A DNA stretch of 64,000 nucleotides, from contig CM062276.1 of NCBI GenBank assembly GCA_031216635.1, positions 7,299,185-7,363,184 on the forward strand. The letters are read 5' to 3'. Under the pieces are notes generated by a model, which saw only the letters and a list, made by a program, of their open reading frames with translations, did no database searches and was not told the DNA's origin. The stretch's first letter is position 1. The number at the start of each line of letters is the position of its first letter. A program made the position numbers and the translations under genes. This DNA is from Dissostichus eleginoides. Taxonomy: Eukaryota. Below are positions 33,201 through 39,200 of the stretch, piece by piece.

Positions 33201-36200
33201 TGGCAGGCTGTCGCAGCTGCCGTAAAGATCGCTTGTGTCCTTGAGAGGATCCTGAAAAACAAAAAGAAACGTATTTGTTTTCTGAAAGTTATTTACAACA
33301 ATCTTTTATCCCCAAAATGTTTAATAAAAGATTTTACAGTAAGGCTTTCACACATTTCTCTGCATGATTGTTGGGGCTAAATAATCACCATTAAAATATT
33401 ATAGCGATAAACATACTTTAAAATATATATATAATTAATACTATACTTCTTAACTAGTTATTTTGTGTCTCTTTTTGTCAAATATATGACGCTCAAAATA
33501 TGAATACAGGGAAGTGAAGAGAGAGCCTGTAACGCTGGAGTTTACATGATAAGACCATATTTATATTATTGAAATAAATGCTATTTCATTGTTTTAAAAT
33601 ATCACAGTAATTGTGAATACCGGTAAAAAACAAGACGCCTGTTTTTTTACAGACCAAGAAACAACCAGGAATGATGCACATCACCAAATAAAACATGTTT
33701 GTTAGGTGACCTTCGCAGCGAGTAGGCGTGGAGACGGTTTTGGAGACTTCTTGAAGATCCCTGCCAGTCCTCCGGTCTAAAACATATGAAATATTCTCAT
33801 GTTAATATCTAAATAATAATTAACAGCAGAACAAAGAAAACAGAAGATGTGAGACAACGTTTGTACCTTTGCTTTGTTTGCTTCTAAGAGATTTTCACAA
33901 CTGTCTGATAACGTCGTATCCTCGATTAATTCCTGAACGCACACAACCGGAAAACAAGTGAATAAAACAAAAAGTCAAAGGTTGTGATAAATATTGATAT
34001 GTGTGTGCAGGTAGAGCCACTGCTGCACCTCGTCTGTTGTCGTCCCCTCTGATGGTTTAGGGGTCTTTTTAAACATGCCACTGAAAATATTTTTCTCCTG
34101 AAAACAGAAAAACCGAGTAAGTGAACATTTCAATTTCATCAGTCATTTGTCAAAGTTAAGATTAAAAAGAATAGACAGTAATAGCAGATTAAAAGTAGCA
34201 TTTCTTAAGCTCCACCTGATTACAAAATAAACGTATTCATCCAAACTAGCTAATAAATATTCTATTATTTTCTAATTGAGATGGGAAACTGCATGTTGTA
34301 GTGCATTTCAATAATCGATTTTAAATATGTTATAGTGTGGACATTTCTTTTTTGGTTCACAGTACCTTTGTGTTGCTGTTTTCAAACAGACTGTCGTTAC
34401 TCGCTGACAGCTCCTTCTGGTCCTCCTTGTCCTAGATAGAGAGGAATGGACAGTTTATAATGTTTATTTCTTGTGTCTTCATTTCTTTTGTGTTTTTTAT
34501 GCAACGCAAACATTTCCCAGATAACAGAGTAACTCTCACCTCTGCTGTCGCCTCGTCTCCAGACACTTTGGGGGGTTTCTTAAGAAGACCCCGAACAGCC
34601 CGCCTTTCTCCTGATGAGTGAAGACAGGATTGATTAACGTGATTGCCAACCATGTTTCGAAGCATACAGTTGACTTTTTTTCGACAGTGGAAGAAGTATG
34701 GAGGAATTGTACTAAAGTAAAAGTAGTAAAAGAATAGAATAGAATATATCTTTATTGTCATCATACAAAGTACAACGACATTTATTTGGCAACTCTCACT
34801 GCAGTAAAACAGGTTAAGTATTTAGTTACAGGGAATGTTACTGCATTCAACATCTTATTAAAAGTAAAGCACTGACCTCGTCAAACAGGTTGTCGATGCT
34901 CCCTGATCTTTTGAAGATGCCAGCCAGGCCTCCTTTTTTCTCCTAAAACACAGATTTAAAATACATATGCTCTTGTTTCATTTAATGTTGAATTGTTTGT
35001 TTTTTCAGGATGAAGTACCTTTGGGGCGGGGGTGTCCTCCAGATTCTCACAGCTACCAGATAACAGTTTTTCTGTGTTCACCTCCAGCTCCTGAATTCAA
35101 ACCAGAAAACTGAATTAAATATCTATCTTGTCCTTCACAGTAAATGTAATGTCTGAATGAATCCAACCACAGTACCTTGTCTGCTGCAGCGCCCTCTGCA
35201 GGTTTCTGCGGCTTCTTAAACATGTTGCTAAAAATATTTTTCTCCTAAAACACACAATAGGTTTTCAGTAAACGCTTCCTCTCAAGACGCTTTAATGGAT
35301 TTAGACATTATTTTAAGCTTCTGTCGCATTACACTGCTCACCTTAGGTGTGTTATTCTCAGACAGGTCATCATTGCTCGCTGACAGCTCTTTCTCAGCTT
35401 CTCCTTCCTGAAACACAGACATTCATGTTTTATGAAAACTGTGAATGTTTTCGAGGTTAAAAATGTATTTCACATTTAACACTCACCAGAGTCTCTGCCC
35501 TCTCTCCGGACGCTTTGGGAGTCTTTTTAAGGAGTACGCCGAACAACTTTCCACCTTTCTCCTGATGATCCGCACAAGAATAAATAGTATTTGTTGAAGT
35601 CAATAAAGTATTTCCAATAACACGTGCATTTGGTTTAAAATGTCAATATTGATGTTGATTTGTAACTCTCTGACCTGTTTGTTCCCACATAAATTCTCAG
35701 TGCTGGCAGAGAGATCGCTGTCGAGCAACTCGTCCTGTGAAGGGTTTTCAAAAAGTCAGCAAATAATACAAATCAAGGAATACTAAAGGTAAGTTCATTT
35801 GAACTTTTGCTCCTGCATGAAAGGACATGAATAATCTAACCACAGTACCTTGTCTGCTGCGGCGCCCTCTGCAGGTTTCTGTGGCTTCTTAAACATGTTG
35901 CTAAAAATATTTTTCTCCTAAAACATAAGTTTGGTCGTCAGTACACACTATCTATGAAGACATTTGATTTACAAGCTTTTGTCGCATTACACTGCTCACC
36001 TTAGGTGTGTTATTCTCAGACAGGTCATCATTGCTGGCACACAGCTCTTTATTAGCTTCTCCTTCCTGAAACACAGAAATGTATGTTTTATGAAACCTGT
36101 GAAATAGTTTTTGAGATTCAAAAATATATTTCACATTCAGTAAACACTCACCAGAGTCTCTGCCCTCTCTCCGGACGCTTGGGAGTCTTTTTAAGGAGTA

Positions 36201-39200
36201 CGCCGAACAACTTTCCACCTTTCTCCTGATGATCCGCACAAGAACAACAAAAATGTGTTGAAGTCAATAAAGTATTTCCAATAACACGTGCAAATGGGTT
36301 AAAATCATTGCCATATGTACACTGTAGCTACTGTGCACATGATAATAAAGCCTTGAATCTTGAATGTCAATATTGATGTTGATTTGTAACTCTCTGACCT
36401 GTTTGTTCCCAGATAAATTCTCAGTGCTGGCAGAGAGATCGCTGTCGAGCAACTCGTCCTGTGAAGGGTTTTCAAAAAGTCAGCAAACACAACAGAAATC
36501 GAGGAATACTAAATGTAAGTTAATTTGAACTTTTCCTCCTGCATGAAAGGACATGAATAATCCAATCACAGTACCTTGTCTGCTGCCGCGCCCTCTGCAG
36601 GTTTCTGTGGCTTCTTAAACATGTTGCTGAAAATATTTTTCTCCTAAAACACACAATAGGTTTTCATTAAACGCTCACATGAAGACATTTTATGTACAAG
36701 CTTTTTTACACTGCTCACCTTAGGTGTGTTATTCTCAGACAGGTCATCACTGCTGGCAAACAGCTCTTTCTCAGCTTCTCCTTCCTGAAACACAGACATT
36801 CATGTTTTATGAAACCTGTGAAATAGTTTTTGAGTTTAAAAAATATATTTCACATTCAGTAAACACTCATTCACCGGAGACTCTGTCTTTTCTCCAGACG
36901 CTTTGGGAGTCTTTTTAAGGAGAACGCCGAACAACTTTCCACCTTTCTCCTGATGAAACGTACAAGAGAAATGTGTTGAAGTTAATTAAGTAAACTTTCA
37001 TTTAGTTAAACATGTCAATATTGATGTTGATTTGTAACTCTCTGACCTGTTTGTTCCCAAATAAATGCTCAGTGCTGGCTGAGAGATCGCTGTCGGAGAC
37101 TCGTCCTGTGAAGGGTTTTCAAAAAGTCAGCAAATTAATAAAATATGGGAATACTAAATAAAAGTTGCCTTCATTATTGTTTTTTACTGATGAAGAGGTC
37201 GCGAATAATTTTACAAAATATTTCTGTTTGTATTACTTCAATTAATAGAAATTAAAAAATAGAATACTTCTGAACAAATATACACATACTTTTTGACAAT
37301 AATGGGAAACATTTGCCAGATTTTCATGTAAAAAGAGAAACAAAATTCATCATTCTAAGACAGAAAAATAATTACTGCATTTTTAACAGAAAAGTATCAT
37401 TAGTTCATTCTTAGTGTCAACACATTTTGGTCACCAAACAATATTAAAGTGATCATAAAAGACTTCCAAGCATGCCTCCATAATTCTAAATACAAAATAT
37501 GAAGTTAAAGTGTTCATTTCATTAAAACATTTAACAGTTTACCTCCTCAGGTTGAGCAGCTTCTGCAGATTTAGGAGTTTTCTTGAATATTCCACTAAAT
37601 ATTCCTCCTTTTTCCTGAAACATACAGTTAAAAAGTGAGTGCTCTCTCCTTAAGTTATTCAGGACTTTAAATGAAGCATGAATCTTTTTACCTTAGTGTT
37701 GAGAGCTTCACTGCTGCCTGTGAGTTCATCGTCTGTTTCCTGAGTACAAAAATCAAACATAACATTAAAAGCTTTTACACTTACACTACATTTTTACATT
37801 ATACTTCTAACAGAGATCTTTTACAGCTAACAGGAACAGCACTATATTAAAAGGGACGCCTGAATGGGTCCATACATCAGAGACGTCTTACCTCCTCTGC
37901 AGCAGCACTGTCTTCAAGTGTGGACGACCGCTTGAACAATCCACTGAAACCTCCTTTCACCTGAAACACACATTTATATAAACTTTATATTCACATTTCC
38001 TGTTCCACACATAGAACATATGAATCACTTACAAAACTACATACAACTCCAATAAGGACATGTTTTAGAAAAAAGTTAAATTGTACATTTATACAGTAAA
38101 CAACATAAAAATAAACAATAAATCAAATTAAATAAAAATAACAAAATAAATACATTGGTGTCCAGTAATACTCAGTAATACGATAAGATGCACTCTTGGT
38201 CGATGTATCTTCTTAATATTTGTAGATACTTTTGATAGTTTTGTAAACTGTAAATACATCTTAACTGGACTGTCTGTGTTCCTGTGTGATTTCCCCTTTA
38301 GCAGGTTTTGGTTGTTTATACTGTAACAATATCTTGAGTCCTCATGTATCAGTATTAGACACAGGTACACCGTAGGGAACATTTCATTGCCACATTAGAG
38401 CCATACGAAGGGCTGCAAATAAAGATCCCTAACATTTTGTATTCATTAAACTAATTTCCTGGAGCCCAACAGACAGATTCCCCCTGCTGCCTGAGACCGT
38501 TTGTACAGGTGAGCTGACCTTAGTGTTGGTGGCTTCAGACAGACTGTCGTTGCTCGCTGAAAGATCTTTCTGTGCCGATAGATCTTTCTGTGCCGATAGA
38601 TCTTTCTGTGCCGATAGATCTTTCTGTGCCGATAGATCTTTCTGTGCCGATAGATTCTCCTGAAACAAGAAAACTGTCAGAAACAGAGAGCAGCTCAGCG
38701 TGTAAGAAAGTGTTAGATACAAATATTCTAACGTCTGTCGTCGAGTCAGATGAGGAGTTCTCTATTTCTGAATAAAGAGAGGACTTTATATAATTGAGCC
38801 TGGAATGAAAGTAAAGAGGAGAGGTATTTTTTCATACACTTTCAAAGCTAAGCCTTTATCTCTAATCACACACACATCCCTTTGGGTCTCAGGACATGGG
38901 CTGGTTTGTGTGCAAAATATAAAAATCAATAAACAAACCAACAGCAAGTGTTGAAGCTAAGCCATGTAGAAAGAACAATCAACCAGATTTGATATTAGAA
39001 TAAAACGTTTTACTGTCTGTGTCTACATGAAAGCTGCTTTTGAGAAGCTGTACCTCTCCGGGTGTTTTGGGGGTCTTTCTGAGGAGTCCACTGAACAAAC
39101 CTCCTTTCTCCTACAGAGAAGCAGAAAACATGTTAAAGCAAACTCACTTATTTTCTTTTAAAGGTCCCTATTATTCTGTTTCTCATCAATATATTAGGTC

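Follow-up and report, generated by a model that had tools for sequence, protein, structure and literature searches.

The 64,000-nucleotide stretch of the Dissostichus eleginoides genome analysed here (contig CM062276.1, positions 7,299,185 to 7,363,184, hereafter the window) carries on its minus strand an apparently apold1a-type gene of about 22 kb, which combines an apolipoprotein L (ApoL) domain with a long N-terminal array of very short exons. Between positions 35154 and 37166 four of these exons, designated B1, A2, B3 and A4, are repeated together with their introns in three head-to-tail units. This array is very probably a fixed, multi-million-year-old triplication of the B1-A2-B3-A4 cassette in exons that encode a disordered N-terminal region. 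Both steps of the expansion predate the divergence of Dissostichus and Notothenia and postdate the split from those percomorphs that have a single cassette.

Structure of the repeated cassette

The exon array of the gene comprises about 38 short phase-0 exons (45072-32379) of 48-141 nt each, which alternate between two motifs. The 'A' motif is basic-hydrophobic with the pattern EKGG-Φ-FSG-Φ-FKK-x-PK and a net charge of about +2/+3, as in the peptides EKNIFSNMFKKPQKP and EKGGKLFGVLLKKTPK, and the 'B' motif (DLSASSDSLSEN) is acidic and serine-rich with a net charge of -3 to -5. Self-BLASTN of the 26-48 kb portion of the window yields four long off-diagonal matches, all of which lie within 35154-37166. 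They pair 35154-35641 with 35828-36305 (87.3% over 495 nt, E=8e-156), 35639-36274 with 36363-36992 (89.4% over 643 nt, E=0) and 35154-35787 with 36554-37158 (84.9% over 647 nt, E=5e-173), and the fourth is a junction match of 160 nt between 36364-36521 and 37012-37166 (90%, E=2e-52). The offsets of these matches are 674, 724, 1400 and 648 bp, equivalent to a period of 647-724 bp with a mean of about 686 bp. An initial annotation of the window had proposed a ladder of repeats with a period of about 710 bp; the ladder is present, but its period is not a uniform 710 bp. The results of repeat finding and of aligning the three units with MAFFT concur with those of self-BLASTN, which was used in place of Tandem Repeats Finder because the longest period of the latter, 500, makes it blind to the array.

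A scan of the minus strand for AG/GT borders and reading frame identifies four AG...GT exons per unit, in the order B1-A2-B3-A4 in all three. The exon sizes of 60, 75, 66 and 69 nt add up to 270 nt or 90 codons. B1 encodes DELLDSDLSASTENL.GNKQ, A2 encodes EKGGKLFGVLLKKTPKASGE...., B3 encodes EGEAEKEL.AS.DDLSENNTPK and A4 encodes EKNIFSNMFKKPQKPAEGAAADK, a peptide that is present three times. All exons of the array are phase 0 at both ends, so the frame is kept and 90 residues are added per step. The initial annotation is borne out in these respects: the same four exons recur in the same order in three consecutive units, the introns are kept between copies, the A4 copies are identical at the peptide level, and the protein has been lengthened by whole cassettes at the DNA level, introns included and in frame.

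In the direction of transcription the array (35154-37166, minus strand, from the self-BLASTN limits and the unit alignment) consists of U3, U2 and U1 with two junction introns made by the duplication. The start-to-start spacing of the units is 647 and 724 bp, and the distance from the start of the third unit to the next exon is 644 bp. The 5'-most unit, U3 (36459-37105, 647 bp), contains its exons at 37105-37047 (B1, 59 nt), 36949-36875 (A2, EKGGKLFGVLLKKTPKASGEKTESP), 36784-36719 (B3) and 36643-36575 (A4, EKNIFSNMFKKPQKPAEGAAADK), and retains states that are also seen in outgroups and are regarded as ancestral, namely 'DESP' where B1 begins and 'TESP' where A2 ends. The middle unit, U2 (35735-36458, 724 bp), is a chimera with exons at 36458-36399 (B1), 36225-36152 (A2, 74 nt), 36065-36000 (B3) and 35917-35849 (A4), and its first intron carries an insertion of about 60 nt (36290-36350) that neither U3 nor U1 contains and that recurs in part in U2 of Notothenia coriiceps. 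The 3'-most unit, U1 (35091-35734, 644 bp to the next exon), has all four exons intact at 35734-35675 (B1), 35561-35487 (A2), 35407-35342 (B3) and 35244-35176 (A4). The array is flanked directly upstream by the single-copy exon A0 (37543-37614, EKGGIFSGIFKKTPKSAEAAQPEE) and directly downstream by the single-copy exon B5 (35019-35090, ELEVNTEKLLSGSCENLEDTPAPK), both on the minus strand and both conserved in outgroups.

Between units the exons are 92.6-97.0% and the introns 84.7-86.0% identical, and the longest perfectly identical runs between window units span 48-64 bp. Among the remaining A/B exon pairs of the gene, matches are limited to 40-86 nt of exon at 77-88% identity, which makes the cassette clearly younger than the other parts of the array.

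Age of the triplication and its occurrence in other fishes

The locus of N. coriiceps (L002, KL664094.1) is colinear with the window and contains three units in which all 12 exons are intact, U3' at 9515-10175, U2' at 10176-10871 and U1' at 10872-11753. In an alignment of the three window units with the three N. coriiceps units, the Jukes-Cantor distances between positional orthologues are 0.061 for U1, 0.081 for U3 and 0.091 for U2. The units inside the window are separated by 0.115, 0.135 and 0.159, and those inside N. coriiceps by 0.097-0.198. Every window unit is nearest to its positional counterpart, and the two species have unit markers in common: U3 carries DESP/TESP, and U2 the insertion in intron 1. 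This positional orthology of each unit places the triplication before the split of Dissostichus and Notothenia, which corresponds to the crown node of the cryonotothenioids. Dissostichus is sister to all other cryonotothenioids, the radiation of which is estimated to have begun 10.7 million years ago (14.1-7.8) (Bista et al., PMC10256766), with earlier estimates at about 22 million years ago (PMC10256766). Intron 1 of N. coriiceps U1' also harbours an insertion of about 240 bp (L002 ~10975-11222), possibly a small mobile element, that is absent from U1 of the window and from the other units.

The triplication had been described as recent and the locus as likely to be polymorphic in copy number and prone to assembly collapse or expansion. 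An expansion that was young, specific to one lineage and still polymorphic in copy number would be in keeping with introns that can be aligned between units and with the identical A4 peptide, and the gene belongs to a duplication-prone family in which internal tandem segments occur in 47 of 214 relatives. Continuing recombination between units is also indicated by patches of low divergence: the distance is 0.059 between the 5' parts of U2 and U1 in the window, and 0.045, below any orthologous pair, between the 3' parts of U3' and U2' in N. coriiceps, which include an identical run of 142 bp. The copies are nevertheless far from near-identical even in neutral sequence, with an inter-unit divergence of 11-16% (Jukes-Cantor 0.115-0.159) and introns that are only about 85% identical. 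Nor is the array restricted to one species or population, as the same three units occur in the same order, with common markers and positional orthology, in N. coriiceps. Three A4 copies are found in three independent sources, the window, the D. eleginoides protein KAK1879588.1 and the N. coriiceps scaffold, which dates from the short-read era. A young expansion is accordingly judged distinctly unlikely, its 'recent' part being largely refuted, and nothing suggests collapse or instability in copy number. The array still recombines locally, though the copy number is three in both genera.

The identity of the A4 peptide was also considered as a mark of youth and ruled out as such. Between window copies A4 has no non-synonymous and two or three synonymous differences per pair, and the same 23-residue peptide is just as identical in Cottoperca gobio (L001 22243-22311). 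Scomber, Lucifuga and Cololabis encode it in a nearly identical form, and the stretch EKNIFSNMFKK shows no change in these three genera or in Pseudoliparis. Ratios of non-synonymous to synonymous substitution (Nei-Gojobori dN/dS) over the 270 coding nucleotides are 0.06-0.50 for all unit pairs, and conservation is higher in exons than in introns. The peptide identity thus reflects purifying selection rather than youth.

The comparison of orthologous loci in related species, which the initial annotation had suggested, reveals three units in N. coriiceps and one cassette in other percomorphs. A single B1-A2-B3-A4 cassette lies between conserved flanking exons in Scomber, Perca, Sander, Gasterosteus and Pungitius, a statement that covers the percomorph orthologues with a complete gene model in this analysis, and copy number therefore differs between lineages, with one in these five percomorphs versus three in Dissostichus and Notothenia. 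Separate duplications in the array occur in Lucifuga, Cololabis and Anableps. The cassette segments of six of these genera show 64-80% amino-acid identity to the window cassette. Given a single cassette in the outgroup percomorphs, the expansion arose on the notothenioid stem after those lineages had split off. Orthologues from Trematomus, Gymnodraco and icefish are not among the matches listed, in which these fishes are represented only by the upstream paralogue described below.

The notothenioid Cottoperca gobio (LR131924.1, L001 21258-23008) has a two-copy tandem duplication of a shifted block, B3-A4-B5-A6, with a period of about 935-980 bp. The duplicated segments are 89-100% identical and the block has no B1 exon. 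Its first copy is degenerate, with a deletion of 131 bp that fuses B3 to A4 and an additional frameshift, and RefSeq splits the gene at this copy into two models. In Cololabis saira a five-exon block that includes B1-A2-B3 is present twice (protein residues 347-568). Both cases resemble the window in that whole exon blocks are tandemly duplicated in the same neighbourhood of the same gene, but differ from it in breakpoints, registers and copy numbers, and they are separate events from the cryonotothenioid triplication. Across the family, a diagonal scan finds an internal tandem segment of at least 45 amino acids at 85% identity or above in those 47 of 214 proteins, at offsets of 46-47 amino acids (two exons), 88-94 amino acids (four exons) and larger. 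Both groups of ApoL-repeat paralogues in teleosts thus commonly evolve by cassette duplication, of which the window cassette is one instance.

The duplicated exons of Cottoperca, together with the gene-conversion tracts present in both Dissostichus and Notothenia, raise the question of whether the duplication is much older, dating back to the ancestor of all notothenioids or percomorphs, with units homogenised by concerted evolution and copies lost in the one-cassette species. However, the Cottoperca block has another register and period and lacks B1, as befits a separate event, and Scomber, Perca, Sander, Gasterosteus and Pungitius all have one cassette. Furthermore, orthologous units are closer than paralogous ones over most of their length, and homogenisation is patchy rather than pervasive. 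Little credence is consequently given to such an ancient origin, and the triplication is placed between the split from the one-cassette percomorphs and that between Dissostichus and Notothenia.

The middle unit and the breaks in frame

The initial annotation attributed the array to unequal crossing-over, for which the middle unit offers support. U2 was scored at sites with fixed differences between U3 and U1 in both species. Its 5' part, which runs from B1 to the A2 donor (36458 to about 36153), has the U1 state at 17 of 20 sites, whereas its 3' part, up to A4, has the U3 state at 8 of 11 sites in the window and 11 of 12 in N. coriiceps. The switch point coincides in the two species (Fisher's exact p=0.004 and 9e-5) and the informative-site track locates it just 3' of the A2 exon donor, in a zone at 36126-36153 on the minus strand. 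The middle unit is thus a hybrid of the outer two with its 5' portion from the downstream unit and its 3' portion from the upstream unit. This is the polarity of an unequal exchange from two units to three, and fits a misaligned exchange between two arrays of two units each. Judged on these patterns unequal crossing-over appears to be the best mechanism, and the support that the hybrid unit provides for it is new evidence.

The junctions of the duplication are intronic: one lies about 60 bp upstream of B1, the other about 30 bp downstream of A4. It is proposed that the segment between these two points was first duplicated in tandem and that the two copies then diverged. The downstream copy on one chromatid would subsequently have misaligned with the upstream copy on the other, and exchange between them would have produced three units of which the middle one resembles U1 in its 5' part and U3 in its 3' part. 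Thereafter the three units have been retained in both lineages, with the exons under purifying selection and adjacent units swapping patches by gene conversion.

Several points weigh against this account of a fixed and old triplication. Gene conversion blurs the distances, and the only safe statement on age is that the triplication preceded the split of Dissostichus and Notothenia. If a whole unit had been duplicated and then altered by gene conversion, likewise a form of non-allelic homologous recombination, the pattern would look similar to that of unequal exchange. The genomes compared are those of two cryonotothenioids and one bovichtid. The use of the exons is read from gene models predicted for two related species, and the functions suggested below for the A and B motifs are deduced from sequence. 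Finally, 2 of the 12 cassette exons of the window are out of frame and the three units are not fully translatable as assembled.

The two exons concerned are B1 of U3 (37105-37047, 59 nt) and A2 of U2 (36225-36152, 74 nt), each of which is one base short, the latter at CCC-AAG. Outside the cassette the exon at 34610-34540 (71 nt) is also one base short, and the last exon of the gene has two single-base deletions at about 26921 and 26429. This brings the number of frame-breaking deletions relative to N. coriiceps to five, three of which shorten a short single-base run. In the D. eleginoides protein KAK1879588.1, B1 of U3 and exon 34610-34540 are intact and A2 of U2 is omitted. The possibility that the gene is a pseudogene in Dissostichus was not adopted, since the first ApoL exon is identical in translation to that of N. 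coriiceps over 138 amino acids and the remaining indels of the last exon are all multiples of three. These features, and the fact that A2 of U2 is otherwise identical to A2 of U1, imply that the deletions may be either errors in the assembly consensus or very recent lesions.

The five deletions mean that the assembly may contain consensus errors, which would speak for the array itself being an assembly artefact, a falsely expanded or mis-joined repeat. A false duplication would, however, not produce units that differ from one another by substitutions and unit-specific indels, and the same structure recurs in the assembly of another genus and in a Dissostichus gene model, each obtained independently. 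An artefact is hence scarcely credible, and a genuine triplication remains the favoured reading.

The host gene and comparison with known systems

The host gene (26086-48415, minus strand) was delineated from an exon table, Pfam, tblastn and the names of its matches. It starts with a start codon at 48415 (MEACMMKPEVKKKP) and ends in a charged tail that reaches to about 26086. Two exons, 29019-28606 and 27673 onward, encode the ApoL domain and match Pfam PF05461 with 77.4 and 37.2 bits (E-values 1.7e-21 and 2.9e-9, cut-off 25.9), and the 807 amino acids of the array match no Pfam family. Among the best protein matches is the D. eleginoides 'Apolipoprotein L3' KAK1879588.1, with which the gene has lineage-specific residues in common and which is 100% and 99.5% identical in the two ApoL exons. 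Further best matches are XP_010770098-102 of N. coriiceps, with which the translation of the first ApoL exon is identical over its 138 amino acids. Several hundred teleost proteins match, many of which are named apold1a, 'apolipoprotein L domain containing 1a' or si:rp71-1g18.13; the top full-length matches include genes that bear one of the first two names in stickleback, cichlids, Xiphophorus and Cynoglossus, all of these names being automatic. A second ApoL-repeat paralogue is located upstream on the same strand (54152-63900), and the same arrangement is found in Cottoperca (L001). Going by its closest named relatives and its neighbourhood, the host gene is likely to belong to the teleost apold1a orthology group. 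A literature search for 'apold1a' found no paper.

The segment at 54152-63900 represents the 3' half of the paralogue, which is annotated as 'Apolipoprotein L6' in D. eleginoides and whose last exon is 99.7% identical over 317 amino acids. A (CTCA)66 microsatellite (53788-54052) follows just downstream of its stop codon. Elsewhere in the window, which has a GC content of about 38% and contains (AC)n and (CTCA)n microsatellites, an inverted repeat of 0.5 kb occupies two introns of the host gene (39158-39659 and 44383-44889, 93% identical) and matches L002 7044-7541; it is probably a transposable element. Overlapping open reading frames of 176-302 amino acids at 21685-23238 (minus strand) are reverse-transcriptase-like (…LLDLTAAFDTINH…YADD…) and coincide with a strong GC-skew peak at 22-24 kb, and are probably the remains of a decayed retrotransposon.

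Within the exon array, the B-type exon 38659-38519 (minus strand) contains a perfect 18-bp repeat of 5.2 copies (38562-38655, 100%) that encodes (LSAQKD)x5. N. coriiceps (L002 ~8037-8105) and Cottoperca (L001 19889-19957) each have a single LSAQKD. This repeat is a truly recent in-frame expansion of the Dissostichus lineage that adds 24 amino acids, and it is a more promising place than the cassette to look for length polymorphism.

The five RefSeq isoforms of N. coriiceps (L002 10001-22442) differ by the presence or absence of whole 90-residue units. All of them begin inside A4 (MFKKPQKP...), although U3 and earlier exons lie upstream in the scaffold (7583-10048), and the model is therefore 5'-truncated. 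The unit-skipping isoforms could be real or could result from ambiguous mapping of reads between near-identical exons. The cassette accounts for the fragmentary or many-'isoform' gene models of this locus in notothenioid annotations, and the five single-base deletions in the coding sequence of the window are flagged for annotation.

AlphaFold2 applied to a cassette alignment of seven species returns a mean predicted local distance difference test score (pLDDT) of 54.5, a predicted template modelling score (pTM) of 0.12 and no secondary structure. The peaks of local confidence fall on the A motifs and reach 73 at NIFSNMFKK. This model fits an N-terminal array that forms a disordered tail with conserved short linear motifs. 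Each unit would add two copies of the basic-hydrophobic motif (GG-Φ-F-x-G-Φ-F-K-K / NIFSNMFKK) between acidic serine-rich spacers, and the triplication would raise the number of motifs in the flexible region that precedes the membrane-associated ApoL domain. A bolder extension, which is speculative and rather unlikely, is that the three-unit state is a cryonotothenioid synapomorphy retained because the tripled NIFSNMFKK/GGKLFG motifs alter the engagement of membranes or partners in the cold, and that the A/B mini-exon array of teleost apold1a-type genes constitutes an undescribed modular linear-motif system, the motif number of which is adjusted in each lineage by repeated cassette duplication.

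Overall, the locus provides a clean case of how a disordered, motif-bearing tail can grow by means of phase-0 exons, tandem duplication and an unequal exchange that leaves behind a hybrid middle unit. The three units of Dissostichus and Notothenia versus the one of other percomorphs form a phylogenetic character for the radiation. No new mechanism is shown; this is an ordinary fixed exon duplication that is useful for annotation.

Mammalian APOLD1/VERGE is an endothelial ApoL-domain protein associated with cell contacts and Weibel-Palade bodies (PMC9973481, PMC10328887). The window gene is reminiscent of human APOLD1 in its C-terminal ApoL domain (PF05461) and in having teleost relatives that NCBI and Ensembl name apold1a. 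Human APOLD1 is a short protein of about 279 amino acids that is not known to possess a long N-terminal A/B exon array. The window gene differs from it in this array, and the likeness between the two rests on the ApoL domain and automatic names.

With regard to its architecture the cassette resembles the triplicate region of the nebulin gene (NEB), in which a human cassette of eight exons is present three times in tandem. In both cases a multi-exon cassette with its introns has been tripled head to tail and in frame within a long repeat-protein gene, which is attributed to unequal recombination. Copies of the NEB cassette are nearly identical and differ in number from person to person, whereas the window copies are 85-93% identical, at least about 10 million years old and three in number in both genera. 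In addition, the NEB cassettes encode structured actin-binding repeats, while those of the window encode a disordered tail with short linear motifs. The PEVK region of titin and the 54-bp exons of the fibrillar collagens are likewise phase-symmetric mini-exon arrays that grow by duplication, and like the window array they are composed of short exons of the same phase with one low-complexity motif each, whose blocks duplicate and whose number varies by lineage. The window array differs from these in its alternation of basic-hydrophobic and acidic serine-rich exons and in its ApoL-domain host, and its exons, unlike interchangeable repeats, hold their positional identity across percomorph orders (64-80% at the amino-acid level).

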